From positions 38,874,001 through 38,938,000 of the forward strand of contig OZ024741.1 of NCBI GenBank assembly GCA_964016885.1: DNA of 64,000 nt, in the 5' to 3' direction. This document shows positions 37,245-64,000 of the stretch, one piece after another. The stretch is from Eledone cirrhosa (Eukaryota). Made by a program: the position numbers and the translations under genes. Numbering within the stretch: position 1 is the stretch's first letter; each line of letters starts with the position of its first letter. A model generated the notes under the pieces. That model was not told where the DNA came from and did no database searches. It saw only the letters and a program-made list of their open reading frames with translations.

Positions 37245-37334
<90 letters not shown>

Positions 37335-39109: not shown

Positions 39110-41790
39110 GAGTAGGATGTTTGAATGCACGTGGCCTGGGCTCAACTTGGAAGCAAGCAAAGCTTCTAAATGACCTCAGGTCATGTGGTATAAATGTAAT
39201 GGTTATCTGTGAGACTCGGATCAGCGTCGTGCGGCACCTGGCCTCTACCTTCGATGACTTTGAGGTGCATGCATCTCTCTGTCAACCTGGAGATGGGGGT
39301 GGGGTTGTCATACTGCTGCAAAAACACCTGGGTTTTGCCGTACAGGTTGTTCGCTCGGACCCGGAGGGTCGTTTGTTGGTGCTAGACGTTGGCAGTACTG
39401 AAGGTGCGGCCTTGAGACTGGTCGCCGTCTACTCCCCTTTCGGAGCTGAACGGCCCGACTTCTTCCAGCGTTTGGAGACTTTTCTGGGAACGTCGCGTTC
39501 CCTGCTTCTAGCGGGGGATTGGAATGACATCCTGGATGCACGTTGGGACTATGCAGGAGCATGTCCTAATAGAGGGGGGTGTAACAGCCTCAAGGGGTTA
39601 CTCGACCGTTTTAACTTGGTCGATAGATATCGACTAGATTTTCCAACTGCCGCGTCTCTTGAGCGAAGAGGCAGAGTCCTGCGAGGGACCAATCTCGGCT
39701 GATGAGATCGGAGATGCGCTGAGCCAATGCAGCAGACGCAAATCTCCAGGTCTCGATGGTATACCTTACGAACTTTACTTAGCAATGCCGGTCTTCTTCT
39801 CCGAACTCCTCGAAGCGGTCTACTGCAATTGGCAGCAGAACGGGAGAATTCCTTGTTCTGTAGCCAAGGGCGTAGTCTCGCTGGTGAGGAAGGACGAGAA
39901 CAAGGGGGATAGTATAAATAATTTTCGGCCCATAACCCTGCTAAACACAGAGTTAAAGATTCTGGCCAAGGTGTTAGCAAAGAGGTTGGCGCTTGTCGTG
40001 GGCAGCCTGGTGGGAGATGCGCAGACATGTGCTATCCCACCCAGGTCCATTCACGATAACCTCCACCTCATGCGATACATCAGAGAGAGGGTTGGCAACA
40101 AACCCAGCTTCGGTGGGGCCCTGATCAACTTGGATCAGTCTAAGGCCTTCGATAGGGTCGACCATGGTTACCTGGATGCGGTGCTAGCGGCGGCTGGGTC
40201 CGGTCCTGTTTTCAGAGGCTGGATCACTGCCTTACATAGCAACCACATCTGTTCTAGGATCAAGGTGAACGGCTACCTTTCGAAGCCGTTCGAAATCACA
40301 CGATCCATTCGACAGGGGTGACCTCTCTCCTCCCTTCTGTACGTATTGACTCTCGAGCCTTTACTGAGGAAGTTAGAGTTGTTGCAGGGTATCCCCCTGG
40401 AACCAGGATTGAGCAAAGCGGTGTCGGCCTACGCCGATGACGTAACAGTAATGGTATCGACCGACTCGTAGATCGAGGCGATCGGTACCTTACTGGAGGA
40501 TTACGAAAAGTTGTTAGGAGCGAAACTGAACCGGGAAAAATCCATCGGGCTGCAACTCGGAACGTGGAGAGGCAGACCGATGCCTCCCGACGGTGTCGTC
40601 GGACACTGGACGGAGGGCCCGGTAAAGTTGCTTGGGATCTGGTTTGGACCGGACCTCCAGGTGGAAAAGAACTGGAACGAGGTTACGAACAAGGTGTTTG
40701 CACTAACCCAGAAATAGGCCAAGTGTAAGCTGTCCCTAAAAGGCCGGGCGGAGGTGGCGAACATTTACATAGCGTCCGTCACTTACTACCGCCTGACTGT
40801 CGTGCCTTGCCCTAAGGAAACACTCACCACCATGGAACGCATGCTCTTCCAATTTCTTTGGAAGAAGCGCCCTCCTATGGTGCGAAGATCCATCTGCTGC
40901 CAACAACCTTCGAAAGGAGGGCTGGCGATGCCGTGGTTGATGATGCGTAGGCACGCATTAAGGCTACGGCACCTACAGGTATTCCTCACTGGTCAACCGG
41001 TGTGGGCTCCATTCGTGAAACGAGCCTTTCCGAGACTCGTCTCGCTCACCGAGCTGCAGTCCTGGGTCAAGCAAAGATCCGGAAAACTGGGAGACTGGCA
41101 CACTGAGTGTGCTCAGGCGCTCAGGGCTCTCTGGCAAGCGGGCCAGGCCATCGGTGGAGAATCCACCTCATCATTCTATAGAGGGCTGGTGGCTAGCAGG
41201 GGCAATGACACCCTTGGAGAGTCGCTGGACATGGAAGAGGACGAACTGGCCAGCCTGTTCGGTAGGACTTTCGGCCCGGGACCAATGGACAACTTCCAGA
41301 AGTCACTAGCCTGGCAGTGCTACCGGGGGGCTCTACCCGTTCGAGAGAGGCTCTACAGACATGGGCGCCCGGGCAGGGATCTCTCGAAAAAGATTTGCCC
41401 TAGATGCGTGCGTCACGAAGAAACCGTTGCGCACGCATTGGTGCAATGTCCGGGCGTGGCTGATCTGTGGGGCTACGCCGAACGACTGCTGTCGCGGGTG
41501 GCGCCGATTCAATTGACCGCCGAGTCCGTGATGACAATCAAACCGCCTCCCCTCTTCGCAAAGGAAGCAAAGGCGGTTTTTCTGTGCGTAATAGCCATGT
41601 TGAAAGAGGTTGTTTGGTGGACACGATTGAAAGGTCTGAGGTCAGGCAACTTCCTCTCTGGCCATAGCCTGGTCTACTTCTTCCGATATCACTTCGGAAG
41701 AAGGATAAGAATGTAGAGAGAGGTGCTTGGCCACAGGCAGTTTTATGAAAGGTGGGTGATAGTGGCGAGAATGCCTCGTGTAAATGGGCC
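39097..41790 (+). pseudogene. LINE ORF2 EN-RT-zf, ~720-bp deletion and several stops
   Basis: jump from LDFPT to PRL at ~39649; stops at ~40319, 40469, 40715 and 41714; YADD intact. Confidence 0.9.
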
Positions 41791-42045
41791 TTCTCTGTAT
41801 ACCATCCTGTAGGTAAAGAAGTAAAGGAGAGGGGAGCACCTTCTCCATGTGCTCCCCGGGCAAAGGATTGCACACTTTTTCGGAGGTGTGTGCAACCCCC
41901 ATCACGTCCCCTCCCTTTTGAGGTTGTTTTCGATTATTTTCATTTTATACCCTTTTTACTCGATTGTATGTAAACTCCCCCTTTGTATTTGTCCCTTCTT
42001 TTTATGCCTTTATGGTAAATAAAGAAATATATTTATATATCTATA

Positions 42046-42076
<31 letters not shown>

Positions 42077-42607: not shown

Positions 42608-42626
42608 ATATATATATATATATATA

Positions 42627-42704
<78 letters not shown>

Positions 42705-42706
42705 TG

Positions 42707-42742
<36 letters not shown>

Positions 42743-42745
42743 CTG

Positions 42746-42800
<55 letters not shown>

Positions 42801-43348
42801 TGTATATATATATATATATATTGTTATATTTGGGGAGGGTCATATTTGCGTAATATTGCCAGAATTAATAACAGAACACACTCACTGTTTGGTGGGTTTT
42901 CGCTTCTCGCTGTCTTTTATATCTGCGATCTAACTTACTCGGTCCTCAATGTTGCCATTGACTGACCGGCGGTCAAAAATAATACAGATACAATATAGAC
43001 ACAAACACATATATATAGTTTACATAATTTACATAAATCTTTCGTTGCACATCTGCAACATCGTCAGTGGTGTTATATTCATTGTTCCTCCTGTTGTGTT
43101 GTATGTCTACGCCATTTTTTATTCAGTCTGTCTATATATTTCTTTATTTATTTGCTTGTTTGTTTATCTTATTTTATTTTGTCTTCTTTGCGCATGCGTT
43201 TGCGTCTGTGTATAGTGTTATGTGTGATGTGTGACTAGTGTGTATAGTGTTGTGTCTGCTGGGTGACTAGTGTGTGTTTATGTGCTTGTTGTTATTGTGC
43301 TTGTGTATGTATTTATTTATCTTATTCTATTTTATTTTATTTACTTAT

Positions 43349-46290
43349 TTATACTTCTCTTAGGTCAGTGTTGTTTGTTTGGGTGTTGTTGTTCCACTCA
43401 TTCTTTCTGTTTAGCTTTGGTCTTCTAATTTCTATTTCACTGGCCTCTCTGATTTGCCTATCTGCTGGGTCATTCCTATGTTTAGATATTATTCTAATTT
43501 CTATGTTGTCTATGTTACCGTCATGTTGTTGTCTAGCATGTTCATATAGTACTGACCCGTTTTTTCGTCCTTTTAGTTCCCCCCAGTGTTGGTCTATCCT
43601 TTCACCTATGTTACGAGCTGTCTCACCTATGTATGTTGTTGTCATGTTTCTGCAAGTACCCTCTGTACATCTTATGCTATAGACTACGTTTCTAGTTTTA
43701 CAGTTTATCCGGGGGTTCACCTTACATATGATACATTTCCTATTGGTACAGTGGGTTTTCTTAAAAGGGTAGGTTTTGCTGATCAGGGATTTTATGGTGG
43801 TTCCTGGCTTTTCTACCACCTTTATTTTTAAGTGGGTCTTTCTCAGGGCCTTTCTACACTGGTTAGCTAATTTCCCTCCAGGGGTGGCGTCCACAAACAT
43901 GACACTCTGATATCTTTGGTTGTCGTACCATGATGTGGCCTTCCCTATCTTATGTCTAGCCCTATCTAAGCTATTCCATGATTTGCTCCTGTATAGTGGG
44001 CAAATTCCTTTCATGTCCAGTTCTATGAGGGTCTTATACTTTTCCATGGCTCCTTCGTATACTCTGACTCTGTCTCTTTGGTTGTAGCCTGAGAACTGCA
44101 TGCGGTTGATGAAGTGTTGGATGTGTCCTTCCATTTCTCTTGGGTCGCACATGCTGGACACATTCTTCATCACTCGTACCAAATCTGCGATCAGAATATT
44201 AAACTTAGCACTACTGGACATTGCTGAGTTTTTGAGTATCAGGTATTTGGAGGCCATGGGTTTAGCATAGTGTGAGTGGAGAATTTGGGCTCTCTCGTCT
44301 ATAGTGTTAATCCAGAGTTCTGTGTCTAATACAGGTAGTCTATTGTTAGGGTGTTTGGAAGGGAAGTCGATAGTTACAGTTATACTCTGGTGTATGGAAT
44401 TAGCTATCTGCTGGATGCTTTCCATCGTGCTACGTTCTAAATCAAACTTGTTAGTGCTCTCTAGTGGGGGTGTTCTTATAACTATATTGATATCGTCTAC
44501 ATAACGAGAGTACATGATGAGGTCTATGGAGCTTTCATTAAGGAGATCTTTAAGTCTCCTTTCCCACCATACCATGAAAAGGTTGGCAACATCACCAGCT
44601 ATGCTGACGCCGATGGCTGCTCCCTCATTTTGGGTGTAGATTTTCTCATTGAACTTAAATATGTGGCCCTTTAGGGTAGTTTTGATACTAGCCCCTATTG
44701 CATGTGCGACCATTTTTCTTACCTGATCAGTGTTTTGGGGGGGTCCGTATAGCTTTGGTCCACCCAATCCACCTTCCTATGGGAGTCTTTTTAGCCATTG
44801 AGGTTATGGTGGGGGGTCTACCTCTTATAGGTCTACTAGGGCAGAAACATCTAAGGTCATGGCTGTCTAGGTAGTCAGTGTCGTAGGTAAGTCTAAGTAG
44901 GAGGCCCAGTTCGTCTGTGTCGACGTAGCAGAACTCCACCTCACTCTCAATGATCATCTCCACACATCTTTTCACAGCAAAATCAATGTTAATGGATGGG
45001 TACAGTGACACCACATCCATGCTGCCTATTATGCAGTTGGATAGGCTCCTGTTTTTGTTGCACTCACTGATTCTGCTGAGGAGGTCCTCTGTACTTTCAC
45101 ATACATCTGGGGACATCTTGATTATGGGGCGTATAACCATTGAGAGGAAGTAGGAGATCCTGTAGTTGCTAGCTATATTAGCTCCGCATACGGGTCTTGT
45201 TGGTGGTCCTGTTGTCGGGTCGTCGACTGTCTTGTGGTCTTTGCGGAGCCCATAAGGGTGGTATGCCATTGTTAGACACCTGGAAGTTGTTGGCAGTGCG
45301 TCTGCTTGGCTTTAGGATGTCAGTCCACATCATCATGTGAGCGTTGAGGATTTTTTCTCTCCCATCGTGTGTTAGTTGTGCAACTTCGCTCGTGTTGGTG
45401 ATGTGGGGTTGCATTGCCTCGATGTAGTTCGGCATGCTATCTATTGACATCCTACCAGACTTATCTGTGGGCAGACACACTACCTCACCATCCCTTGTGC
45501 GCTGCTTGAGGCTAACCAAGCCTTCTACAGGTTTTCTCCCAAGTTGTTGGGCCTCTGGTCTGCTCTGTCTCTTAGTATACCTGTCTACTACTTGTCTAAT
45601 CTTATTTCTAGCTATGGTGAACTGTGCCTCCGTCTCGTCATCTATTTGCTGTGGTATGCAAACTCTTTTATTAAAGGGTAACCTCGTAGGATAGATATTA
45701 CCCATCTTATATGTTTTGTCAGCTGGGTTGAAAAATAGTTTCTCTAAGGGGTTGTCGTTATTTCTATCGTCATAGTTGTGTGTGTTGCTATTATTGTTAT
45801 CATGGTGGTTGTTGTTGTTTCTATCATTAGCATTATTATTATTGTTATGATTGCTAGATGTATTGTTGTTTACTTCACCGTTATTGTTGTTGTTGTTACT
45901 GTTATTTATACCATTGTGGTTGTTACTATTATTATGTTTCTTGTTTTTGTTGATGTTGCTACATGTACTATTTCCATTATTACCACTGTGGTTATTGTTG
46001 TTGTTGTTCTTATTGTTACCGTTATTACTAGTGTGGTCACTGTTGCTGTGTCTGTGGTTAACGTTTCTATTATTATTATTATTGTGGTAGTTATTGTTCC
46101 GTCTATCGCTAGTATTATTGCCATTATCACTATTTCTCACTTTCCTGCCATTGTTATGGTTATGGCTGTTATTTCTATACCCAGAGTTATTGTTTATATT
46201 ACTACTACCGTTATTATTGTTGTTGTTGTTTACCTTTGCATTCCAACGTATTTTTGTGAAACACTTTTCCAGCTCCGTTTTGCATTCCAT
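43349..46290 (-). pseudogene. PLE RT + GIY-YIG ORF, 5'-truncated, two frameshifts
   Basis: TDKSG, GLRKDHK, TRPVCGA, SMDVVSLYPS, GAAIG, RYVDD, LPVLD, VVY..YIGET..R..QH, RQIREA..LN; frameshifts near 45255 and 44740. Confidence 0.9.
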
Positions 46291-46296: not shown

Positions 46297-47919
46297 AAAG
46301 ATGTGTGGAGATGATCATTGAGAGTGAGGTGGAGTTCTGCTACGTCGACACAGACGAACTGGGCCTCCTACTTAGACTTACCTACGACACTGACTACCTA
46401 GACAGCCATGACCTTAGATGTTTCTGCCCTAGTAGACCTATAAGAGGTAGACCCCCCACCATAACCTCAATGGCTAAAAAGACTCCCATAGGAAGGTGGA
46501 TTGGGTGGACCAAAGCTATACGGACCCCCCCAAAACACTGATCAGGTAAGAAAAATGGTCGCACATGCAATAGGGGCTAGTATCAAAACTACCCTAAAGG
46601 GCCACATATTTAAGTTCAATGAGAAAATCTACACCCAAAATGAGGGAGCAGCCATCGGCGTCAGCATAGCTGGTGATGTTGCCAACCTTTTCATGGTATG
46701 GTGGGAAAGGAGACTTAAAGATCTCCTTAATGAAAGCTCCATAGACCTCATCATGTACTCTCGTTATGTAGACGATATCAATATAGTTATAAGAACACCC
46801 CCACTAGAGAGCACTAACAAGTTTGATTTAGAACGTAGCACGATGGAAAGCATCCAGCAGATAGCTAATTCCATACACCAGTGTATAACTGTAACTATCG
46901 ACTTCCCTTCCAAACACCCTAACAATAGACTACCTGTATTAGACACAGAACTCTGGATTAACACTATAGACGAGAGAGCCCAAATTCTCCACTCACACTA
47001 TGCTAAACCCATGGCCTCCAAATACCTGATACTCAAAAACTCAGCAATGTCCAGTAGTGCTAAGTTTAATATTCTGATCGCAGATTTGGTACGAGTGATG
47101 AAGAATGTGTCCAGCATGTGCGACCCAAGAGAAATGGAAGGACACATCCAACACTTCATCAACCGCATGCAGTTCTCTGGCTACAACCAAAGAGACAGAG
47201 TCAGAGTATACGAAGGAGCCATGGAAAAGTATAAGACCCTCATAGAACTGGACATGAAAGGAATTTGCCCACTATACAGGAGCAAATCATGGAATAGCTT
47301 AGATAGGGCTAGACATAAGATAGGGAAGGCCACATCATGGTACGACAACCAGAGATATCAGAGTGTCATGTTTGTGGACGCCACCCCTGGAGGGAAATTA
47401 GCTAACCAGTGTAGAAAGGCCCTGAGAAAGACCCACTTAAAAATAAAGGTGGTAGAAAAGCCAGGAACCACTATAAAATCCCTGATCAGCAAAACCTACC
47501 CTTTTAAGAAAACCCACTGTACCAATAGGAAATGTATCATATGTAAGGTGAACCCCCGGATAAACTGTAAAACTAGAAACGTAGTCTATAGCATAAGATG
47601 TACAGAGGGTACTTGCAGAAACATGACAACAACATACATAGGTGAGACAGCTCGTAGCATAGGTGAAAGGATAGACCAACACTGGGGGGAACTAAAAGGA
47701 CGAAAAAACGGGTCAGTACTATACGAACATGCTAGACAACAACATGACGGTAACATAGACAACATAGAAATTAGAATAATATCTAAACATAGGAATGACC
47801 CAGCAGATAGGCAAATCAGAGAGGCCAGTGAAATAGAAATTAGAAGACCAAAGCTAAACAGAAAGAATGAGTGGAACAACAACACCCAAACAAACAACAC
47901 TGACCTAAGAGAAGTATAA
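46297..47919 (+). pseudogene. PLE RT C-half + GIY-YIG, 5'-truncated inverted partner
   Basis: 472-aa ORF differing from the minus copy at two residues; same C7 frameshift near 46528. Confidence 0.9.
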
Positions 47920-48196
47920 ATAAGTAAATAAAATAAAATAGAATAAGATAAATAAATACATACACAAGCACAATAACAACAAGCACATAAACACACACTA
48001 GTCACCCAGCAGACACAACACTATACACACTAGTCACACATCACACATAACACTATACACAGACGCAAACGCATGCGCAAAGAAGACAAAATAAAATAAG
48101 ATAAACAAACAAGCAAATAAATAAAGAAATATATAGACAGACTGAATAAAAAATGGCGTAGACATACAACACAACAGGAGGAACAATGAATATAAC

Positions 48197-48237
48197 ACCA
48201 CTGACGATGTTGCAGATGTGCAACGAAAGATTTATGT
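48197..48237 (+). ncRNA. Hammerhead-like motif in PLE 3'UTR/pLTR (mirror ~43031-43071 on -)
   Basis: CTGACGA T GTTGCA-GATG-TGCAAC GAAA GATTTA; stems I and III weak. Confidence 0.55.
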
Positions 48238-48488
48238 AAATTATGTAAACTATATATATGTGTTTGTGTCTATATTGTATCTGTATTATTTTTGACCGCC
48301 GGTCAGTCAATGGCAACATTGAGGACCGAGTAAGTTAGATCGCAGATATAAAAGACAGCGAGAAGCGAAAACCCACCAAACAGTGAGTGTGTTCTGTTAT
48401 TAATTCTGGCAATATTACGCAAATATGACCCTCCCCAAATATAACAATATCTGTTTCGACACACGATTTCATATAAAAAACCTCGCTA

Positions 48489-48645
<157 letters not shown>

Positions 48646-48920
48646 AAGTTATATTTAAAATTGTTGGGTTACAACTAGTAAATATTTATAACTGATATAA
48701 AAGCACTCGACAAATATTTGGAGTATATTTACAATATTAAATAAATGGAAAACTACATTTATAAAACCATATTTATTTCATGTCGAATCTATTTATCTAT
48801 AAAACTGTTTATATTGTATTTTGTCTGATGAAGGCATAGCATATTGTTAATATGATATCCCCGAAATATATATAATGAAATAAATATGGTTTTATAAATG
48901 TAGTTTTCCATTTATTTAAT

Positions 48921-49219: not shown

Positions 49220-49283
<64 letters not shown>

Positions 49284-49287
<4 letters not shown>

Positions 49288-52200
49288 GTTACTAACTGAT
49301 ATAGAAATTGATCAGATCAAGCTATTAGCACAAAGTCAGCGAAGGGAAAATGAAATAAGTGTCAGTGAAAACGAGGTAAATTGTAACACTTCGAATCCCA
49401 GGGTTGGGGCGGAATCACTGACAACAGAACAAATTAAAGAAAGGATCGAAAAAGTGGAGGGAGTGCATCCTCAAGATGAAACTCAAAATGAAAACAATGA
49501 GATCGTAAATGATAAAGAAATGAATGAGAATGAACTTGCCAACTTGAAGGATGAAATTATGATCGAATGGATGAAAATGAAAGAATCTGACATGGGGGAA
49601 CGAGACACCCTCCCTAAGATCCAGAACTCCAAACAGAACCAAAAGATAATACACAAGACTAACATAATTCTCAAAAACATTATCATCACAAACAAACTAA
49701 ACATTACTGACTTAAATCATCTCTATTATGCATCGGCTAAAGTCACCACTCACTTATGTGGAGTGAAGATGAAAAAACAAAGGAATTCCCACAAGAAATC
49801 TACTTGGCAAGATAACATCAATCGCCAAATAAACCTTCTCCGATCTGACATAGAAATTTTAACAAACTATAAAGTAGGTGAACATGTTAAACAAACTAAA
49901 CTTAGAAAATTGAAAAAAAGTACAGTATAAGATCAACATGTGACATAGACATGCTGATAGAAACAATCAAGCAAAAAGTGTCGGCCAAAGCTGCTCGTAT
50001 AAGGCGCTTTGAAAAACGATCTAGATTCTATAAGGACAATAATATGTTCAAAAACAACCAAAGAAACTTCTACAGAAAAATTGGTAAGTCAACAATAACT
50101 GCTAAATCAATACCACCCAAGGAGGAAGTGCAAGAATTCTGGGAAAAGATCTGGGCCGAAGAAAAAGTTCATAACATACATGCCCCATGGATAGACAGAC
50201 AAATGAAAGAAACAGCTCACCTTGAAGAACAAACATGGGAAAATATAACAGTTGAACAGCTGCGCTTGGCTCTAAGAAAAACCAGCAAATGGAAATCCCC
50301 AGGAAAAGACAAAATACAAAACTTTTGGATAAATGCCTTCACAGAGTCTCATGAGCTGTTAGCCCAACTTTACAATGAAATAGTTAAGGAGCCAGAAAAG
50401 ATACCATCATGGCTAGTTAACGGCATTACATTCCTGCTACCGAAGAATGATGAGACAAACAATCCCAAAAATTACAGACCGATAACCTGCTTGACCACAA
50501 TGTATAAAATTTTAACATCAGTCCTAACTGAATACACATATGACCACCTGATAACAAATGACCTATTTCCCATTGAGCAGAAAGGGTGTAAACGAGGCTC
50601 ATATGGCTGTAAGGATCAGCTTTTGGTTAACAAAATGATACTGGAAGATTGTCATAATAGACACAAAAATCTATCGATTGCTTGGATAGATTATAAAAAA
50701 GCATTTGATAGTTTGCCACACAGTTGGATTGAAAAATGTTTAGAGATTTTCAAAATATTCCCCGTTATCAGGAGGTTTTTGTCATTCAGTATGAGGACAT
50801 GGAGAACGACACTCCTTTTGAATAGTGAAACAAAATCACTGGAAGCTGGAGAAGTTAACATTAATTGTGGAATTTTTCAGTGTGACTCTTTATCACCGCT
50901 TTTATTCTGCATCGCACTTATACCATTAAGTAAAATGCTCAATGAAACAAAACATGGATATAGAGTCTATGACAAAACCATTAATCACCTGTTCTACATG
51001 GATGACCTGAAACTATTTGCAAAAAATGATGAACAATTGCAAGGGCTATTATCCACTGTGAAGCAGTTCAGTGATGACATTAAAATGGAGTTTGGACTGG
51101 ATAAATGCGCCAAAGCAACGTTCACCAGAGGAAAGCTGCTGAAGAGTTCAGACATTAATCTTGATCGGGGGAACGTGATAAGAGAGCTTGATCAAGAACA
51201 AACTTACAAATATCTAGGTGTTTGTGAAGGAGACGGAATCAAGCACTCGACAATGAGGGAAAGGATAAGGAAGGAATGTTACCGCAGAGTCAGAGCAATC
51301 TTAAGAACGGAATTGAATGCAAGGAATAGGATCGATGCCATAAACACGCTTGCCATACCAGTAGTAACCTACAGTTACAATGTCATCAACTGGTCAAGCA
51401 CAGAGATCCGTAGGCTCGATACAAAAATCCGAAAATTCTTAACCATGCACAGAATGCATCACCCTAAGGCAGACATACATAGAATATATCTCCCTAGGAA
51501 AGAAGGAGGACGTGGGTTAATCCAGTTAGACATTGCGTTGAAAACTGCAACAATTGGATTATCCACATATCTAAGGGAATCACATGATTGGATGATCAAA
51601 CTCGTTTTGAAACACGAAAGCACCAAAAGATCATATTCCATTACAAAAGATGCACAAAGATACAGTAATGGACTACAAATTTCAGAAGTCCCATTTACTG
51701 CTGAAATGGAAAACACAGAAAAAGCAAAGCAGGTAAAAGTAACTGCAAAGAAAGAACTGCTACAGAAACTGGCTAAGAAATGGCAAGAAAAGCCTCTGTA
51801 TGGAAAATACCCAGAGCGAGCTAACAATCCTGATGTTGAGAAAACTTTAACCCATCAGTGGTTGGCATCCTCTGGACTGAAATCGGAGACTGAAGGACTG
51901 ATTATATCCGCACAAGATCAGTGTCTGCCAACAAAAAATTACCAAGCCAACATAATAAAAAATGGGTGCAGCCCATTATGCCGTGTATGCAAAAAACAAC
52001 CAGAGACCATTGACCATATAATTTCAATGTGCAGTCCTATAGCTCCAACCGAATACCTAAACAGGCATGACAGAGCTGCACAATACATACATTGGATAAT
52101 GTGTAAGCATTTTGACCTGCCCCATCAAAAGAATTGGTGGGAGCATCAACCACCTCCCATACTTGAAAAAGATCACATCTCAATCTTGTGGAACTTTAGC

Positions 52201-52685
52201 ATCCAAACAGACCGAAAAATAGATGCAAATAGACCTGATATAATATTGAAGGACTTTCAAAGGAGGGTATGCCTGCTAATTGATATGTCTGTTCCAATAG
52301 ACAAGAATGTATCTATAAAAACATTTGAAAAATTGAGCAAGTATAAGGACCTGGAGATAGAAATTGGAAAAATGTGGAAATTGAGAACTAAAACAATACC
52401 AGTGGTTGTAGGCGCTCTGGGAGTGATACCTAAGGGGTCTAACGACTACTTATCGCAAATCCCAGGAAACCCGCGTATAGGAGAAATACAAAAGATAGTA
52501 CTAATGGGAACTGCCCATATACTAAGGAAGATCCTGTCAATATAAGTACATCACAAGTCTAAACACTAAGGATGCATGTGTGAATATGTGTGTTCTTTCT
52601 TGAACATGGCGGACCTTGTTGTCTCTTGAGGTCACTGGTTGTGACTTGGTGATAACTCGTATAAACATAAAGCAAGATAAATGCA

Positions 52686-52686
<1 letters not shown>
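49284..52686 (+). mobile_element. R4/Dong-clade non-LTR retrotransposon, 5'-truncated, in (TAA)n
   Basis: RT + CCHC + restriction-like EN; (TAA)n at 49258-49283 and 52687-52718. Confidence 0.9.
49454..52545 (+). pseudogene. RT-CCHC-RLE ORF (864-aa open part), frameshift at the A-run near 49915
   Basis: WKSPGKD, YRPITCL, DYKKAFDS, QCDSLSP (G>C), YMDD, CRVC..ETIDHIISMC, RHD, RPDI..IDMSVP..KLSKY. Confidence 0.88.
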
Positions 52687-52719
<33 letters not shown>

Positions 52720-52960
52720 TTTTCTTTATTAACCACAAGGGTTTACATAAAGTAGACATTAACGACAGTACATGACAATACAGGACGGTACAAATGGGTA
52801 TTTCTGCGTGTAAAAAACAGAGGATGTAATAAAATAACAAAGAAAAATTCTCCAATAGGGGGGAGACTTCCGAGGGACATTTGTGGAGAAAGCCCATTAA
52901 AAGACCACAGTGACCCTGACCACCAGGGCAAGTGCCCTCTCCCAGTTTTCCACCTTTAAT

Positions 52961-55900
52961 TTACAGACACATACTCATTCGAGCCATACTTGCTTCTCTC
53001 ACCCATCTTTCAACAAAATGCTGGGAAGAGAGCACTTCCCTCTCTACCCTGATTTTCCTTTTCAAATTAAATTTGAAAAAGTTAATCAGGGCATCACCGA
53101 AGAGGTAAGTGCTCGTCTTCAGCCCTTTCAAACGTGTCCACCATACTATCTCTTTCGCCATAGCCACCAGACAGATAAAAACTGCCTGCCCTTCCCGGCT
53201 AAAGGAGGAGGGCGGGGCAATCCTCACGATGGACTCAGCTGGTAGCTGGATCCGTCCTACACGTGACAGCATGTGTTCGACATAAACCCACAAGTCAGCA
53301 ATGCTTGGACACTGGACGAATGCGTGCAGGACGGTTTCGTCGCCCTGTGCGCATCTCGGACATGCCCGGCTGACGGCACCTCCATGCCTGTAGAGTTTAT
53401 CCCGAACTGGCAAAGCACCCCGGTAGCACTGCCAGGCCAGGGATTTCTGCAAGTTGTCCATAGGCGCCGGCCCGAAAGTCCTTCCGAAGAGATTGGCTAG
53501 TTGATTTTCGTCGACGCCTAGAGTTTCTCCAAGTACGTCGTCGCTCTTACCCTCCACTAATCCTCTATAGAACGCCAAGGTGGAGTTTCCACCGATTTTC
53601 ACATTGCCCGATTGGTCGAGGGCTGTGAGCGCCTGAAGACATTCCAGTCTCCAAGCGCTACCTCTTGGTCTTCGCTTGACCCAGGACTGCAGCTCCGACA
53701 AGGAGACGAGCTGGTGAAAAACGTGTCTAGCAAACGGCGACCACACCTGATCACCGTCGAGGAAGAGGTGGAGATGTCGTAGCCTGAGCGCGTGTGTGCG
53801 CATCATCAGCCACGGCATGCCCAGCCCTCCACGTAGCGGGTGTTGACAGCAGATGGACCGCCTGACCATCGGAGCGCGTCCCTTCCACAAGAAGCGAAAG
53901 AGCAAACGCTCCAGCGCAGTCAGGCGGGGCTTAGGACAAGGTACGACGGTCAGGCGGTAGTAGATGACGGACGCGATGTACGCGTTAGCCACCTCCGCTC
54001 GACCTTTCAGGGATAGCTTCCTCTCGGCCCATTTCTGGGTGAGAGAAGCCACCCTGCTCGTCACATCATCCCAGTTTTTGTCTTTCTGGAGGTCTGGACC
54101 GAACCAGACCCCTAGCAATTTAACCGGTCCGTCCGTCCAGCGCTCGACGACGCTGTTGGATGGCATGGACCTGCCTCTCCAGGTGCCGAGCTGCAGGCCC
54201 ACTGACTTTTCCTGGTTGATCATTGCTCCTGTCACAGCTTCGTATTCTCTTAGTGTAGTGCCAATCGCCTCGATGTGTTTGGCGTTCGACACCACTACGG
54301 TGACATTGTCCGCATATGCTGACACGGATCTTCCGCATCCTAGTTCGCGCGGGACCCCCCTCAACGTCTCCAGTTTGTGCAGTAATGACTCGATAGTCAA
54401 TACGTACAATAGGGACGAGAGGGGACATCGTTGGCGGACCGAGCGCATGATGTTGAACGGTTCCGAAAGGTGACCGTTCACTCTCACTACAGAGCAGATG
54501 TCGCTGTGCATGGCAGCGATCCAGCTTCTGAAGATGGGCCCAAAGCCAGCCGCCCTCAGGACTGCCGCTAGGTAACGATGGTCGACCCTATCGAAGGCTT
54601 TCGACTGATCTAAATTGATCAAGGACCCACCCGTGCCAGGTTCCTTAGCTACCCTCTCTATGATGTATCGCATGAGGTGGAGGTTGTCGTGGCTGGATCT
54701 GTCGGGAATGGCGCATGTCTGTGCCTCTCCCACCAGACCACCAACGACAAGCGCCAACCTCTTTGCTAGCACCTTGGCCAAAATCTTGAACTCTGTGTTT
54801 AGCAGAGTTATGGGCCTAAAATTATCTATGTTATCCCCCTTGTTCGGATCCTTTCTCAGCAGCGCCACCGCTCCTCGGCTCACAGAGCTGGGAATTCTCC
54901 CGTTCTGTTGCCAGTTGCAGTAGACGTCCGCCAAGAGGCCTCCGAACAAGTCTGGCATTTGTACGTAAAGTTCATAGGGCAGACCATCTAAACCAGGCGA
55001 TTAACCCCTTGTGCAGCCAGTCATTGCCTCCCGTACTTCAGCGGGTGTTATCGGCTTTTCGCAACACTCCGCCACAGTGGCCGAAAGCCGCGGCAGTCCG
55101 TCGAGGTAGACACTAAAGTCCATCCCTCGAACCGGCCCGCCACTGCCCCCGAACAGTTGAGCGAAGTGTCGCTGAAAAGCTTCACACATTTGCCCGGGAT
55201 CGAGTAGCATGCGCCCGTCGTGGTCCACCAAAGACCGGATCGTGGCTTTATTGCCACGACGCGCCTCCGCCACTCGGGCCCATTGAACGGCTTTCGTCCC
55301 CTTGTGTCTGAGAGCACGCACCCTAGCTCTGACAACGCAGCCTTCGTGCTTTGCATTGAAGAATTGGTCAAGGGCCAATTTCGCCGCAAGTACGTCGGTC
55401 GCGATGCCTTTGCTAAGCGCCTCGTCTAATTTTCTAACTAATTCTCCCTCTGCTCTATTTTTCTCTATTGCTAAAGCCTTACTAAACCTAATGGACTCTA
55501 TTCTAATTGCTCTTTTCAGAGCAAACCATCACTTGTTGTTGACGATGGCCCCCGTCAACGCCCGCTTAACTAGTTCGCTAATCCGGTCTCTGTAGGCCTT
55601 ACGCGCTGGTAAGGACGCGTTTAGCTTCCAGTAGCCGGGTCCTCGTCTATGAAGCCTATCTAAGTCGAGCACACAGATCACGAATTTGTGGTCCGTGTAG
55701 CTGACTATCTTGAATTGTGGACAGCCTATGCTAGACCTCTCTATTTCCCTACAAAATACTCTATCTAGATATGATCTGGATGACCCTATGCGATTTGTCC
55801 AAGTCCACATTGGTACATTCGGGAAATCCATTCGGTACCTGTCAGACAGTTCAAAACGTCTGAGCAGGTTGGTGAGACACTTGCACCCTCCTTCCCTATC

Positions 55901-56368
55901 CACTAATCCCACACAATCCCAGCGTGCATCTAAGATCCTGTTCCAGTCGCCCACTAACACTAAAGAGCGGGACGTTCCAAGAAAGGTCTCCAGACGCCGG
56001 AAGAAATCAGGCCACCCTGCTCCTGTCGGGGCATATACGGCCACTAACCTGAAAGCTTGCCCTTCTCCGCTGGTCACGTCCAGCACCACCAACTTACCTT
56101 CTGGGTCCAGGAAGATGGCCCGTATGGCAAGATCCAAACCTCTCCGAAAAAGCACAGCAACTCCTCCACCCGATCCCGGACGGCTGGGAGATGCGTACAC
56201 ATCGTAGCCGCCGAAGATCGGTGCGAAGGCCCGTGCTTCGGTGATTCTGGTCTCGCTGATGGCCACTACATCTATGTTTAGTGACCTGAGGTCGTTGAGC
56301 AGGTGGCCCTGCTTCCATGACGACCCCAAGTCACGCGCATTTATGCTGCCTATTCTGAGTGAGGTCAT
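52961..56368 (-). pseudogene. LINE ORF2 EN-RT-zf with in-frame stops
   Basis: colinear pieces 55529-56368, 55001-55378, 52961-54958; YADN and QRCPLS variants; CPRC..H..C. Confidence 0.9.
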
Positions 56369-56402
56369 GTTGAAAAGGAGTGGAAAAGATGGGAAAGACC
56401 AC

Positions 56403-58393
56403 TTACCTTACTTCTCGTAGGGGAAGGACGGTTTTTCCATCCTTTTCACTGCTTGTGGCCTCCTCAGGAAGGATGTCCTTATAAATCCTCCTGGAGAGTG
56501 CTTGTCGGAAGTCTCCGATGTCTTTGGGGAATTTTTGTTTTAGTGTCATGTACGTTTTCTGTGTGATGCGAGTGATTTGTATGTGTGGAGGTGGTGTGAA
56601 TTTTTGGGTTGTTGTGTAGTCTTTTTCTGTGATGCTGGTGTTGTGTTGGATGTAGTGTAATAATTGCTTGTTGTTCAAATTTAATGCTGAGTAGTGTGTA
56701 TCGTTTTGGTTGTTTTGTTTTGTTTGCGTTTGTTGTGGGTTTGTTTCTGTTTCGCATTTTGGTGACTTTTGTGGTGTAGGTGATGGTGGTGTTGGGGTTA
56801 ATGATGGTGATGGTGTTGGTGTTTGGGTTGATGAGGTTGGTGATGCTGGTGTGGATGGTGGCATATCTGTCCTAACTTTTTTGTTTTTTAATTTATTTGT
56901 TTCCCTCTGTATTTTGTTTTTGGAGGGGGAAGGAAGAGAATTTTTTTCTTTTTTGGTTTCTTTTTTTTTTTCCTGATACCGTTTCCCACTCCTCGTCGTC
57001 ACAATCTGTCTCCAGTTGTGATAGGCCGGGGAGTGGAAAATCCTCCACAGGCGTTAGTTTTGGTTGTGGCGTGGTGGATGGTGTAGGCGCTGGTGCTAGT
57101 TCTGAAGCGTTGGGTGGTGGTGATGTTGGTTTTGCTGGTGGTGGTGGTGTTGGTTTTGCTACTGTTGCTGGGGTTGTTGCTGTTATAGCTGCTTCTGTTG
57201 TTGCTGCTACAGTTGTTGCTGCCATCTCTGCTACTGGTGGTGTTGATGGTTGAGTCACTGGGGTGGGTAGGAGAGGTGGCCTCAACCTTTTAGCCTGAGG
57301 GCAGAAATCCCTTAGGTGGGTTCCTTCACCACAAACGACACACCTAGGCCTTCTACCCTCGACAATTACGGTGAGGTGGCTGCCGTCAGTGAGGTCTATT
57401 ACCTCTGGGATCTCCTCAATGCTTTTTTGGTCCGCTTGGATCAGGAGCTCCATCCCACATCCGGACCAGTTCTCCTGCTTTTCTTTTGCTATTGCTATTA
57501 TCTTTGTGTTGGCTTCGATGCCGGCGAGGACGGCCGCTATTAGCCAGGGAATTTCGATGGCCGGTGGAACGTGGGTCACCCTGATCTTTACGAGTCTCTG
57601 GCCACAATAGCTTGGGACGAGTGTGAAGTCGTCACTTCTTAATGGGGCCATGGAGTGTTCTCTAGCCTCCTCTGGTGTTTCAAAGAACACGTCCACGGTT
57701 CCATACTTCTGCCCACGTCTGATGTGGGTTTTTCTTGCCCACACATGTCCCAAAGCTTTTTGGATTTAGGACTTGGATGCCCGTTCCACTCGGCGCGATT
57801 TTACATTTATTGTTCGATACGACACGGTGCATAGGCGCCGATGCTCCATTTTATTAGGTGGGGGGGGGGGTTGAGGCTGACCCTGTACCCATCTTTATTT
57901 ACCATTTTTTTGGCATTTTCTAATTCCTCCTGAGTTACCGTAAATGCTTCGCACTGTTTTGCTACTCTGGCAAAACTCAGGGTGGTATTTTAATGTCATT
58001 GTTGTTGTTGTTGCTATCGTTATTTTTGTTATTATTAATTTTAGTTTCAGTTGTGGTGGTGGTGACGTCAGTGGAGTTCGGTTTGGAAGAGTCCATTTTG
58101 GTTGAAAATATTTCGACATCACGAGTTGATTTATTTTTTCCTTTTGTTTCTGTTGTCGCGGTGGTGGTAGGGGTGGTGGTTGTCGCGGTGGTGGTGGTGG
58201 TGGCGGTTTTAACACCTGCAGTCATTGGTAATGGCGGGAAATGAATGTCTGCCTGAGACAAATTTAAAATATTGCTAGTGCTTAAATTGTTTGTGTTGGC
58301 AAACGTAGTATCATTTACAATGGTGCTGTCGGTGTGAGGTGTTAATTTGTGAGGAAGGCTTTCAGCTGCTTGGTGCAGAGGTGAATTAGCCAT
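56403..58393 (-). pseudogene. LINE ORF1, frameshifted
   Basis: VEGRRPRCVVCGEGTHLRDFCP knuckle; pieces 57977-58393, 56893-57753, 56403-57002. Confidence 0.8.
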
Positions 58394-58603
58394 TTTTTTT
58401 TCAAAGAAATTTGTTGATAATCATAAAAGTTTAAATTTTGGGCACAAGGTCCCAATCTTTTTGGCTGTCCTTTTCGGAAAACAATGCATGTGCGCTTATA
58501 TATAGTTAACAATAAAAAATTTCCATAAATGGCAATTTTTAACAAACGGAAATAACAAACCTTTGCGGAGCTCACGGTGATACGATTTACTATGTAGGTC
58601 GCC

Positions 58604-58637
<34 letters not shown>

Positions 58638-58639
58638 GT

Positions 58640-59542
58640 ACTAAAGGAGAGGACAATAGACAAGGGATGTCCACGGAGGAAATAACAACAAGGAGAAAGC
58701 GCAGCCTTCAGGAAAAATCCCTTCATAGTACCTTCTTTGAGAAAACTGAATTCAGAGATCCACAGACATGGAACTGGTTGAAAAGAGGCGACCTTAAAAA
58801 GGCTACAGAAGGAATGTTATTGGCTGCGCAAGAGCAGGCCCTCAAAACGAAGTGGTTGAAACAACATATTTACAAGGAGGAGGCTAGCCCATTGTGCAGG
58901 ATCTGTGGAGAGAGAGAGGAGACTGTGGCTCACATTGTATCCGAGTGTAAACACCTAGCCCAGACTCACTATAAGGGCTGGAGACATGATGTGATGGGCA
59001 GGGTGATCCACTGGCACCTATGCAAAGTAAACAATTTACCACATTCTGAGAAGTGGTATGAGCATAAGCCAAAGTCGGTGATAGAAAACGATCAGGTGAA
59101 GGTGCTGTGGGATTTTAGGATACAGGCGGACAAGAAACTGGAACACAATAGACCTGACCTGGTGGTTGTGGACAAATAAAAAAGATCGTGCCTGATTGTG
59201 GATGTGGCCTGCCCATTCGACACGAGAGTGCAAGAGAAGGAGAGGGAGAAAATTAACCGATACCAGGACTTAAAGTGGGAGGTAAAAAGGACTTGGAACT
59301 GCCATGAAGTCAAAGTGGTCCCGATTGTCATAGGCGCACTAGGTACTATCTCAAAACGTTTCCAGGGATGGTTAAAGAAAATTGGCCCCTTCACGCTTTT
59401 TGGAACGCTTCAAAAGGCATGCTTGCTGGGAACAGCAAGAACCCTCCGATACGTCCTGCATATCTGAGGCTGCAGGTAGTGGCTTGATATTCATTTCAAC
59501 AAACTTTCCAGTTAACTAACATCAATGACTGAGACTCAAAGA
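58640..59542 (+). mobile_element. Second R4/Dong-type family, 3' fragment
   Basis: LLAAQEQAL, CRICGEREETVAHIVSEC, RHD, RPDL..DVACP..KINRYQDL, VPIVIGALG; stop at 59177; (TAA)n on both sides. Confidence 0.88.
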
Positions 59543-59565
59543 ATAATAATAATAATAATAATAAT

Positions 59566-60899
59566 GATTTCTTTATTGGCCACAAGGGTTGACATCAAGA
59601 AAAACATTACAGACGGCACAGGACGGTACGATGTGGGTGTTGTGCGTGTAAATAATTTTATTATTTATATAAGAAAAGAAAAAAAAAGGACATAGAAACA
59701 TATATATAAACAATAAAAATGAAAAATTGAAACAATGAAAAATTCCCCAATAGGGGGGAAACCTCCGAGGGTTACTCGTGGCGAAAACCACACAAAAGAC
59801 CACGGCCACCCTGACCACGATGGCAAGAGTCCTCTCTCAATTTTTCAATTTCTCAAACTACAGACGTATATTTAGAGCGGTCCCGTTCACTCGGACCATT
59901 CTCGCTACAAATTTCGCTACAAATTTCAACAAACTTGCTAGAAGGCAGCACTTGCTTCTCCACCCTGATTTTCCTCTTCAAGTGAAACTTGAAAAATTTA
60001 ATTAGGGATTCGCCGAAGAGGAAAGTGTCTGTCTTTAACCCTTTCAACCTTGTCCACCACACAATCTCTTTCGCTATGGCCACCAGGCAGATGAAAACCA
60101 CCTGCCTTCCTCCTCGAAGGAAGACGGCAAGACCATCTGCACAATGGACTCAGTCGATAACCGGATCAGTCCCACATGCGACAGCAACTGTTCGACATAG
60201 CTCCACAAGTCAGCAATGCTCGGGCACTGAACGAGTGCGTGCACGACGGTTTCGTCGCTCTGCGTGCATCTCGGACAGGCTCGGCTGACGGCACTTTCGT
60301 GCCTGTAGAGCTTATCTCGAACCGGCAGCGCTCCCCGGTAGCACTGCCAGGCCAGGGATTTTGGGAAGTTATCAATAGGCCCTGGGCTGAAAGTTCTCCG
60401 GAAGAGAGCAAACAGCTGATCTTCTTCGACGCCCAGGATGTCTCCGAGAACGTCGTCGCTCTTCCCCTCCACTAGTCCTCTATAGATCGCTGAGGGGGAT
60501 GTTCCACCGATACTGGTGCCCAGCTGGCAAAGGGCAGTGAGCGCCTGGAGACATTCCAGATTCCAAGCGCTATCCCTGGGTCTTTTTCTGACCCAGGACT
60601 GCAGCTCCGCCAAGGAGACGAGCTGTGGGAAAACGTGCCTGGCGAACGGCGACCATACCTGTTCACCGTCAAGGAAGAACCAGAGATGTCGCAGCCTCAC
60701 CGCATGTTTGCGCATCATCAGCCATGACATGCCCAGTCCTCGACGCAACGGGTGTTGACAGCAGATGCATCGTCTGACCATGGGAGCGCGTCCCTTCCAC
60801 AAAAAGCGGAAGAGGAGGCGCTCCATTTTGGTGAGAGTTGGGCCGGAGCATGGGTCGACGGTGAGGCGGTTGCAGATGACGGATGCGATGTACGCATTC
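59566..60899 (-). mobile_element. Tx1 LINE 3' fragment, another TAA-lineage subfamily
   Basis: NAYIASVI..CPRC..WWTRLKG; related 3'UTR; (TAA)n on both sides. Confidence 0.88.
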
Positions 60900-60917
60900 A
60901 TAATAATAATAATAATA

Positions 60918-60971
60918 ATTGTTTCTAGTTTTGGCACAATGCCAGCAATTACCCAGTACATTACTGGTACT

Positions 60972-60973
<2 letters not shown>
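60918..60973 (-). mobile_element. SINE 3' fragment within (TAA)n
   Basis: reverse complement matches 36332-36390. Confidence 0.7.
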
Positions 60974-61036
<63 letters not shown>

Positions 61037-61037
<1 letters not shown>

Positions 61038-64000
61038 TTTTCTTTATTAACCACAAGGGTTCACATAAAGTAGACATTAAGGACAGTACAGGACAATACA
61101 GGACGGTACAAATGGGCATTTCTGCGTGTAAAAAAAAAACAGAGGTTGAAATAAAATAACAAAGAAAAATTCCCCAATAGGGGGGAGACTTCCAAGGGAC
61201 ATTTGTGGAGAAAGCCCATTAAAAGACCACAGTGACCCTGACCACCAGGGCAAGTGCCCTCTCCCAGTTTTCCACCTTTAATTTACAGACACATACTCAG
61301 AGAAGGCCCATTCATTCGGGCCATACTTGCTTCTCTCACCCATCTTTCAACAAAATGCTGGGAAGAGAGCACTTCCCTCTCTACCCTGATTTTCCTTTTC
61401 AAATGAAATTTGAAAAAGTTAATCAGGGCATCACCGAAGAGGTAAGTGCTCGTCTTCAGCCCTTTCAAACGTGTCCACCATACTATCTCTTTCGCCATAG
61501 CCACCAGACAGATAAAAACTGCCTGCCCTTCCAGGCTAAAGGAAGGGGGCGGGGCAATCCTCACGATGGACTCAGCTGATAGCTGGATCCGTCCTACACG
61601 TGACAGCAGGTGTTCGACATAAACCCACAAGTCAGCAATGCTCGGACACTGGACGAGTGCGTGCAGGACGGTTTCGTCGCCCTGCGCGCATCTCGGACAT
61701 GCCCGGCTGACGGCACCTCCATGCCTGTAGAGTTTATCCCGAACTGGCAAAGCTCCTCGGTAGCACTGCCAGGCCAGGGATTTCTGGAAGTTGTCCATAG
61801 GCCCCGGCCCGAAAGTCCTTCCGAAGAGATTGGCTAGTTGATTTTCGTCGACGCCTAGAGTTTCTCCAAGTACGTCGTCGCTCTTCCCCTCCACTAATCC
61901 CCTATAGAACGCCAAGGTGGAGTTTCCACCGATCACATTGCCCGATTGGCCGAGGGCTGTGAGCGCCTGAAGACATTCCAGTCTCCAAGCGCTCCTTCTC
62001 GGTCTTCGCTTGACCCAGGACTGCAGCTCCGTCAAGGAGACGAGCTGGGGAAAAACGTGTCTTGCAAACGGCGACCACACCTGATCACCGTCGAAGAAGA
62101 GGTGGAGATGTCGTAGCCTGAGCGCGTGTCTGCGCATCATCAGCCACGGCATGCCCAGCCCTCCACGTAGCGGGTGTTGACAGCAGATGGACCGCCTGAC
62201 CATCGGAGCGCGTCCCTTCCACAAGAAGCGAAAGAGCAAACGCTCCAGCGCAGTCAGGCGGGGCTTAGGACAAGGTACGACGGTCAGGCGGTAGTAGATG
62301 ACGGATGCGATGTACGCATTCGCCACCTCCGCTCGACCTTTCGGCCCATTTCTGGGTGAGAGAAGCCACCCTGCTCGTCACCTCATCCCAGTTTTTGTCT
62401 GTCTGGAGGTCTGGACCGAACCAGACCCCTAGCAATTTAACCGGTCCGTCCGTCCAGCGCTCGACGACGCTGTTGGATGGCATGGACCTGCCTCTCCAGG
62501 TGCCGAGCTGCAGGCCCACTGACTTTTCCTGGTTGATCATTGCTCCTGTCACAGCTTCGTATTCTCTTAGTGTAGTGCCAATCGCCTCGATGTGTTTGGC
62601 GTTCGACACCACTACGGTGACATCGTGGGCATATGCTGACACGGAACTTCCGCATCCTAGTTCGCGCGGGACCCCCCTCAACGTCTCCAGTTTGTGCAGT
62701 AATGTCTCGAGAGTCAATACGTACAATAGGGACGAGAGGGGACATCGTTGGCGGACCGAGCGCATGATGTTGAACGGTTCCGAAAGGTGACCGTTCACTC
62801 TCACTACAGAGCAGATGTCGCTGTGCATGGCAGCGATCCAGCCTCTGAAGACGGGCCCAAAGCCAGCCGCCCTCAGGACTGCCGCTAGGTAACGATGGTC
62901 GACCCTATCGAAGGCTTTCGACTGATCTAAATTGATCAAAGACCCACCCGTGCCAGGTTCCCTAGCTACCCTCTCTACGATGTATCGCATGAGGTGGAGG
63001 TTGTCGTGGATGGATCTGTCGGGAATGGCGCATGTCTGTGCCTCTCCCACCAGACCACCAACGACAAGCGCCAACCTCTTTGCTAGCACCTTGGCCAAAA
63101 TCTTGAACTCTGTGTTTAGCAGAGTTATGGGCCTAAAATTATCTATGTTATCCCCCTTGTTCGGATCCTTTCTCAGCAGCGCCACCGCTCCTCGGCTCAC
63201 AGAGCTGGGAATTCTCCCATTCTGTTGCCAGTTGCAGTAGACGTCCGCCAAGAGGCCTCCGAACAAGTTTGGCATTTGTACGTAAAGTTCATAGGGCAGA
63301 CCATCCAAACCAGGCGATTTACCCCTTGTGCAACTAGTCATTGCATCCCGTACTTCAGCGGTTGTTATCGGCTTTTCGCAACACTCCGCCTCAGTGGCCG
63401 AAAGCCGCGGCAGTCCGTCGAGGTAGACACTAAAGTCCATCCCTCGATCCGGCCCGCCACTGCCCCCGAACAGTTGAGCGAAGTGTTGCTGAAAAGCTTC
63501 ACACATTTGCCCGGGATCGAGTAGCATGCACCCGTCGTGGTCCACCAAAGACCGGATCGTGGCTTTGTTGCCACGACGCGCCTCCGCCACTCGGGCCCAT
63601 TGAACGGCTTTCGTCCCCTCGTGTCTGAGAGCACGCACCCTAGCTCTGACAACGCAGCCTTCGTGCTTTGCATTGAAGAATTGGTCAAGGGCCAATTTCG
63701 CCGCAAGCACGTCGGTCGCGATGCCTTTGCTAAGCGCCTCATCTAATTTTCTAACTAATTCTCCCTCTGCTCTATTTTTCTCTATTGCTAAAGTCTTACT
63801 AAACCTAATGGACTCTATTCTAATTGCTCTTTTCAGAGCAAACCACCACTTGTTGTTGACGATGGCCCCCGTCAACGCCCGCTTAACTAGTTCGCTAATC
63901 CGGTCTCTGTAGGCCTTGCGCGCTGGTAAGGACGCGTTTAACTTCCAGTAGCCGGGTCCTCGTCTATGAAGCCTATCTAAGTCAAGCACACAGATCACGA
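61037..64000 (-). mobile_element. Tx1 LINE (TAA lineage), close paralogue of 52719-58603, continues past the window
   Basis: ORF2 pieces 62265-63998 and 61283-62326; small deletions near 62325-62340; YAHD; near-identical 3'UTR. Confidence 0.92.

Follow-up and report, generated by a model that had tools for sequence, protein, structure and literature searches.

An orientation-polarised array of Dong-type and Tx1-type retroelements joined by TAA tracts in the octopod Eledone cirrhosa

How did six retroelement pieces come to lie end to end, joined by the same short repeat and ordered by strand? The locus that raises this question occupies positions 49258-64000 of a 64,000-nucleotide stretch of Eledone cirrhosa DNA (assembly GCA_964016885.1, contig OZ024741.1, positions 38,874,001 to 38,938,000, forward strand), hereafter called the window. 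All of the joints (6/6) are perfect (TAA)6-21 tracts, each with TAA as its + strand reading. Two R2-type elements, Dong1 and Dong2, which carry a restriction-like endonuclease (RLE), lie on the + strand, and three elements with an apurinic-like endonuclease (APE), designated Tx1a, Tx1b and Tx1c, lie on the − strand with a fragment of a short interspersed nuclear element (SINE). A sequence-only reading of the same DNA had given the order as TAA-Dong1(+)-TAA-Tx1(−)-TAA-Dong2(+)-TAA-Tx1b(−)-TAA-SINE(−)-TAA-Tx1(−), with RLE elements facing one way and APE elements the other, and both the order and the polarity are as it described. We propose, with a probability of about 0.65, that the TAA tract is the insertion target of both Dong and a Tx1 that prefers (ATT)n, which use its opposite strands and split it into new targets.

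The array is flanked on its outer left side by an (AT)17 host microsatellite (49224-49257). Read on the + strand, its linkers are an (AAT)8 tract at the 5′ end of Dong1 (49258-49281), an (AAT)11 tract at the tail-to-tail joint of Dong1 and Tx1a (52686-52718), another (AAT)11 tract where the 5′ ends of Tx1a and Dong2 meet head to head (58604-58636), an (AAT)8 tract at the tail-to-tail joint of Dong2 and Tx1b (59542-59565), an (ATA)6 tract between the Tx1b 5′ end and the SINE 3′ end (60900-60919), and a (TAA)21 tract between the SINE 5′ break and the Tx1c 3′ end (60973-61036). The array continues past the window, and its far boundary lies beyond base 64000. Only seven perfect TAA- or TTA-type runs of at least six units occur in the 64 kb, and six of them are these linkers. 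Outside the array, perfect runs of this type of at least 12 bp make up 57 of 49,223 bases (about 0.1%), and within it the tracts occupy 198 of 14,743 bases (1.3%). Perfect microsatellite runs of at least 12 bp of any type take up 8.3% of bases 1-49223, and (TA)n forms 4.3% of the background outside the array. Those element ends that homology fixes lie no more than a few bases from a tract: 49286-49292 for Dong1, 58640 for Dong2, 60899 for Tx1b and 60972 for the SINE. The array structure is real and far from chance.

Could an assembler have joined separate loci through their common TAA tracts? We compared the array with reads from other samples (4 of the 15 listed runs, over 49258-60990), and these reads cover every compared part of it. 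Run X10 gave just 205 low-complexity partial matches, which were discarded. The comparison covered the sequence between the repeat tracts and thus shows no read or contig across a joint, as a false join would also allow. The tracts are only 20-64 bp long, however, which is below short-read length; the window contains no N, and both Tx1a and Tx1c carry private substitutions and indels. In addition, a false join would still require real junctions between 5′ ends and TAA, so that the targeting signal would stay. We therefore regard an assembly artefact as highly improbable.

The two + strand elements belong to different families. Dong1 (49283-52685) is a 5′-truncated non-LTR element (one without long terminal repeats) of R4/Dong type, recognised by its reverse transcriptase (RT; RVT_1, E = 3e-27) and by matches to R2 proteins (E = 1e-24). 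It contains RT, CCHC, RHD and PD..D..K endonuclease domains, followed by a 3′ untranslated region (UTR) of 140 bp, and its alignment to solved R2 proteins (residues 112-824, E = 1e-24) runs from the RT through the CCHC, RH and PD..D..K motifs. The coding match opens at the tract, at about residue 135 of relatives of about 1220 amino acids; about 135 codons plus the UTR are missing from the 5′ end, and there is one frameshift near 49910. Dong2 (58637-59541, with homology from 58640) is a 905-bp 3′ fragment of a second R4/Dong-type family with one in-frame stop; it also has the CCHC, RH and PD..D..K motifs and shares 39% amino-acid identity with Dong1. The R4/Dong clade is not known to have an N-terminal zinc finger, unlike R2, NeSL and Hero. 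Among the 120 listed relatives of Dong1, none of the 40 homologs of at least 1150 amino acids has an N-terminal zinc-finger pattern within its first 300 residues, and on this basis, with the clade features as we know them, Dong1 appears to fit R4/Dong. No named R4/Dong clade reference was found among these 120 homologs or the atlas matches. At this locus both Dong copies (2/2) have the TAA tract on the sense strand at both flanks. The summed read depth in run X4, which measures depth and not copy number, drops as the 5′ ends of Dong1 and Tx1a are approached, the pattern expected from 5′ truncation; in Tx1a, the depth extends as far as the 5′ end.

On the − strand, Tx1a (52719-58603) is an apparently full-length APE element with two open reading frames (ORFs), identified by Exo_endo_phos, RVT_1 and zf-RVT (Pfam) and by L1 ORF2 matches; the best solved-structure matches of its ORF2 are the L1 ORF2 protein and endonuclease (EN). 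The sequence-only reading had called it full, which stands for its apparent length, but the copy is broken. ORF2 (52961-56368), which encodes the APE, the RT and a zinc finger, has two in-frame stops, and ORF1 (about 56400-58390), with a CCHC knuckle, survives in frameshifted pieces. Its 3′ end carries a stem-loop and AATAAA. Tx1b (59566-60899) is a 5′-truncated copy of a related subfamily, with 79-80% nucleotide identity to Tx1a and Tx1c. Tx1c (61037-64000) is the 3′ 3 kb of a Tx1a-like copy that runs off the window. The Tx1 proteins have named relatives in Argonauta hians (67% identity) and Octopus sinensis, as fits an octopod host. No named Tx1 clade reference was found among the homologs listed or the atlas matches, and the elements are presented as putative Tx1 members on the strength of known motifs and of the use of L1-Tx1 as the L1-group label in an octopus transposable element table. 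Close relatives of the ORF2 protein (67%), P0010 and P0129, carry the name Herbaspirillum sp. in NCBI/UniRef; their 1.8-kb contig is probably host DNA that was placed in a bacterial bin.

Tx1a and Tx1c form one clade in the tree and are 2.4% diverged (71 differences over 2,945 aligned bases), each with private substitutions and indels. We compared the substitutions in Tx1a with the reads (40 of 1,633 rows listed). Fifteen listed positions fall in the overlap with Tx1c, of which eight are private to Tx1a, two differ in both copies and five are shared. At 11 of the fifteen more than 99% of the X4 depth is unlike Tx1a, and two of these are common to Tx1c, one being a substitution in a conserved RT motif. 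The rare alleles shared among the listed rows point to a common, probably defective source for the two copies or to a local duplication. The pN/pS ratio between them is 0.52 (21 synonymous and 35 non-synonymous differences, uncorrected p = 0.03); we rejected it as evidence of activity, since it does not distinguish active divergence from neutral decay.

The SINE piece (60920-60972) is the 3′-terminal 53 bp of a SINE-like repeat of about 180 bp, with longer copies outside the array at 36214-36392 (+) and 15318-15503 (−). Its terminal bases match a Tx1 end at 17 of 22 positions. Nine related Tx1 and SINE ends, once aligned, form a stem of 4 bp and a loop of 5 nt, with 86% of the cells paired; three of the four pairs have changed on both sides, and none of 500 shuffles scored as high. 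A covarying 3′ stem-loop common to the SINE and Tx1 copies is thus suggestive only, and the folds of whole 3′ or 5′ ends are mostly as stable as those of shuffles (z < −2 in 1/7). From the shared stem-loop and the matching end, Tx1 is the likely carrier of the SINE; we found no report of a Tx1 partner for an octopod SINE in the literature searched. No Pol III-derived head (tRNA, 5S or 7SL) was matched by ARAGORN or Rfam, both of which usually miss decayed heads. The flank after the copy at 15.3 kb (15265-15323) matches a repeat at 14483-14541 that itself has ATTATT there, so these bases at the SINE end may be target and not tail.

In the array, the SINE shares a 4-nt microhomology with the upstream tract, and the point at which it breaks off corresponds to an ATTAAAG inside another copy. 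It could be an interrupted copy, with its missing 5′ part beyond Tx1c, past base 64000. The statement of the sequence-only reading that no element interrupts another therefore holds for the other pieces and is in doubt for the SINE. Its description of the retroelements as unrelated is right for the Dong group against the Tx1 group, and does not extend to Tx1a and Tx1c, which are close and share rare alleles, or to the SINE, which has the Tx1 stem-loop.

Which joints, then, speak to how the array was built? In target-primed reverse transcription the primer is the strand that complements the sequence flanking the element at its 3′ end. The opposite polarity would thus mean opposite primer strands, (ATT)n for Dong and (AAT)n for Tx1. 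Five 5′ ends (Dong1, Tx1a, Dong2, Tx1b and the SINE) adjoin a tract in the same sense as the element's own 3′ repeat. The two tail-to-tail joints are explicable by the tails alone, and since the TAA specificity of Dong is published, entry into Tx1 tails could be enough to account for the two Dong copies. The informative joints are therefore the 5′ ends of Tx1a, Tx1b and the SINE, each of which lies at (ATT)n in its own sense. The rough chance that unguided Tx1-type landings would hit a tract with the right polarity is 4e-5 for two landings and 3e-7 for three, and so something ties the Tx1-type 5′ ends to the tract. In the ATT-associated Tx1 group at this one locus, (ATT)n is found at both visible 5′ ends (2/2) and at all 3′ ends (3/3). 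The head-to-head joint at 58604 was rejected as proof alone, since it can be a Tx1b tail split by Dong2, and so was a count of the polarity as six independent coin flips.

We suggest that the array arose from a single TAA microsatellite through one targeted insertion after another. An inserted element of either Dong-type family would have the tract as (TAA)n on its own sense strand, and for insertions by the Tx1-type machinery, which likely also moves the SINE, the tract would be (ATT)n. The Tx1 APE domain itself may prefer the repeat, probably at a T-A step, with the phase ambiguous. Each insertion would split the tract into two usable ones, and targets would pile up locally. Tx1a and Tx1c would derive from one slightly diverged, probably defective source or from a local duplication, with the other pieces landing later in the linker. 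The word self-expanding, which the sequence-only reading had applied to the array, describes a logical consequence and not an observation.

Sister Tx1 copies elsewhere in the window are also found at microsatellites. A copy with an internal deletion (about 37356-42028, within 37244-42073, +) has (TATC)22+ upstream and a degenerate, then perfect (TATC)7 downstream. Two 5′-truncated copies (28156-28937 and 28938-29964, within 28140-30044, +) are bracketed by (CTAT)4 and (TATC)20. A copy of a third Tx1 family (1-4536, −) extends to about 4494; its 3′ end lies outside the window, and a (TA)21 run stands where its 5′ end is presumed to be. All three outer 5′ ends therefore adjoin a microsatellite, (TA)21, (TATC)22 or (CTAT)4; the one at 28156 is fixed by homology, and the other two are assigned to the repeat by assumption. 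A Tx1 3′-end motif was found upstream of none of these outer repeats (0/3), the six motifs in the window all lying at known ends. The three TATC-associated copies form one clade (100/100), with the repeat at 2/3 of their 5′ ends and 2/3 of their 3′ ends. These sites at (TATC)n and (TA)n, none of which belongs to an array, support microsatellite targeting by this lineage. Protein and degenerate motif scans of viral, metagenome and prokaryote contigs yielded no locus for examining the flanks of other Tx1 or Dong copies.

The three related APE domains are 57-60% identical. The minor-groove hairpin loop was considered as target evidence and rejected: four of its nine residues differ between the ATT- and TA-associated APE domains, as expected at 57% identity. 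The TATC copy has lost this loop region. A structure search with a short fragment produced chance matches only. Separately, a long interspersed nuclear element (LINE) at 6738-9284, which we take to be RTE-like, and a rearranged, 97-98% identical fragment of it at 25333-26044 both terminate in (TAGA)3, which is complementary to the TATC repeat at the sister Tx1 copies.

Several observations weigh against targeting of the tract. The evidence comes from one locus with just two or three independent Tx1-type landings, a range that allows for Tx1a and Tx1c as a duplication or for the SINE as an interrupted copy. Tx1b is not placed as the sister of Tx1a and Tx1c in the protein tree, and one TATC-family 5′ end in four, that at 28938, has no repeat at all. 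In both longer SINE copies the 3′ terminus is just two ATT units and there is no upstream tract, and because these copies lack long tracts, the SINE-moving machinery is not restricted to them. Finally, the four − strand pieces are all arranged head to tail, each preceded by the tail of the next, a chain that is also expected from template jumping.

In serial template jumping, during a single Tx1 insertion event, the RNAs of Tx1a and then of Tx1b, the SINE and Tx1c would have been joined through their own (AUU)n tails, Dong would have entered two of the tails later, and Tx1 would have no preference for TAA. Besides the head-to-tail order of four pieces with a common 3′ stem-loop, the two of 11 near-fixed differences from the organism D reads that Tx1a and Tx1c share among the listed rows are as one source predicts. 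Double jumps have been reported (PMC2104539). The sister pair at 28937/28938 has a comparable form: the 3′ end of one copy is joined to the truncated 5′ end of another from a different subfamily (79-82% identical) with 1-nt microhomology and no linker, and this fusion is either a template jump, which it resembles, or an insertion at a tract edge. At the array, however, three serial jumps would be required, two of them from internal break points, and PMC2104539 describes one tripartite chimera versus 33 bipartite ones. Template jumping would also leave the microsatellites at the outer 5′ ends of the sister copies unexplained, and we judge it a distinctly unlikely origin for the array.

Another explanation combines the element's own (ATT)n tail with a loose preference for AT-rich DNA, in which Tx1 enters at many T-A steps, aided where its RNA end pairs with a few target bases; long tracts would be favoured without being needed. 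Tx1c would then have broken a complete SINE at an ATT/AAAG site inside it, and the first flank of Tx1a would have been (AT)17. The outside SINE copies at sites with only two ATT units agree with this, as does the location of sister families at differing AT-rich repeats. The SINE break at ATTAAAG resembles the L1 consensus cut site (PMC1950540), and site choice guided by the 3′ repeat has been proposed for RTE elements (PMC6007223). Nevertheless, the 5′ ends of Tx1a and Tx1b lie at (ATT)n, which is 0.1% of the background, whereas (TA)n, at 4.3%, should be struck far more; moreover, TATC stands on both sides of the sister copy at 37 kb. A loose preference of this kind seems unlikely to suffice. 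The convergence of an APE and an RLE element on one repeat, as the sequence-only reading had proposed, is the best explanation, in line with the sister 5′ ends at microsatellites, and it is held with the reservations that one locus, two or three landings and the remaining rivals impose.

Both halves of the proposed targeting have precedents, as the sequence-only reading had noted. Dong elements target TAA, a snail family included (PMC3812793), and the 5′ junction of Bombyx Dong is (TAA)n on the sense strand (PMC3774820). Like Bombyx Dong, DongAg and the snail DongBg of the R4 clade, with which the Dong-R4 of octopus annotations is grouped, the copies described here are single-ORF RLE elements with sense-strand TAA on both sides; the presence of two families, 39% identical, at one locus is the only new feature. 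In O. vulgaris, Dong-R4 has many copies and recent activity (PMC13282606), and Dong-R4 and L1-Tx1 are both abundant in cephalopod repeat surveys (PMC13282606, PMC8967140); no statement on the target site of either was found in the passages of these two papers. Tx1 families target TC, TTC, TTCC and TTTC repeats (PMC4494074, in which a family counts as target-specific when more than 20% of its flanks are of one type), and a telomere-specific Tx1-1_ACar is cited in PMC10088271. Compared by description only, Kibi at (TC)n, Koshi at (TTC)n and the crocodilian Tx1 elements at (TTCC)n or (TTTC)n share with the present elements two ORFs, an APE, simple-repeat flanks and units that differ among relatives; their repeats are TC-rich, whereas those in the octopod host are ATT, TATC and TA. 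Crocodilian SINEU was likely moved by Tx1-Mar, with which it shares a target (PMC4494074). The octopod SINE is likewise probably moved by Tx1 machinery; SINEU differs from it in head and tail, and the two other octopod copies lie outside long tracts. No (ATT)n-, (TATC)n- or (TA)n-targeting Tx1 was found in the literature searched; cases may exist in Repbase Reports, in Kojima and Fujiwara 2004 and in subscription papers.

Opposite-facing entry into one repeat is also known. SART and TRAS enter a tandem repeat in opposite orientations (PMC10088271), and the endonuclease domain sets their target (PMC7265360). These Bombyx elements of the telomeric (TTAGG)n resemble the present case in that two opposite-facing families form arrays in one repeat, but SART and TRAS are both telomeric APE elements of the R1 clade; the present array has an RLE-type partner, its repeat is an interstitial microsatellite, and polarity alone is seen. 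In the SaTar arrays of guayule and rice, unrelated uninterrupted elements stand in line, linked by microsatellites (PMC5907723). Those arrays are also linear and non-nested, and at times fused without a linker; SaTars differ in being small non-autonomous DNA transposons, and the word orientation has no match in the available text of PMC5907723. R1 and R2 occupy distinct sites in the 28S gene, in the same orientation. They place both enzyme types, APE and RLE, on one multicopy target gene in the 28S rDNA, and their insertion destroys the site, whereas here two tracts would be left. For RLE and APE elements sharing one microsatellite from opposite strands, we found no report in the literature searched, with the same sources as possible holders of cases. 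Every principle involved thus has a precedent (Dong and TAA, Kibi and Koshi, SART and TRAS, the SaTar arrays), and none is new.

The window to the left of the array contains further repeats. Immediately beside the array, a Penelope-like element forms a 2.4-kb inverted duplication (42617-44971 and 46297-48657, 98% identical), with a weak RT match and a C-terminus judged by eye to be GIY-YIG-like. Many perfect-looking fold-back repeats of 250-550 bp, often beside (TA)n (15987-16446, 27306-27592, 32466-32715 and 32783-33329, among others), are probably miniature inverted-repeat transposable elements. Tandem repeats are found at 17745-18181 (143 bp, three units) and 25018-25297 (142 bp, two units).

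What would targeted entry into microsatellites mean for octopod genomes? As a tentative extension, to which we give somewhat less than even odds, the AT-rich microsatellites of octopods may be shared out among a radiation of Tx1 families, (ATT)n, (TATC)n and (TA)n each matching a different endonuclease preference, while a major SINE depends on the 3′ stem-loop common to them. In places where Dong encounters the (ATT)n family, APE and RLE enzymes would use the opposite strands of one repeat and build self-feeding polarised arrays, a possible cause of the retroelement hotspots of octopuses, and the related Tx1 enzymes would form a natural series with differing repeat targets. If this is true genome-wide, octopod Dong-R4 and L1-Tx1 would be steered by microsatellites and not inserted at random, multiplying their own targets as they go, and this would suggest how transposon hotspots form. 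Three related APE domains tied to differing repeats would also provide a compact system for studying how an APE changes its target, a change that is relevant to programmable retrotransposon insertion.

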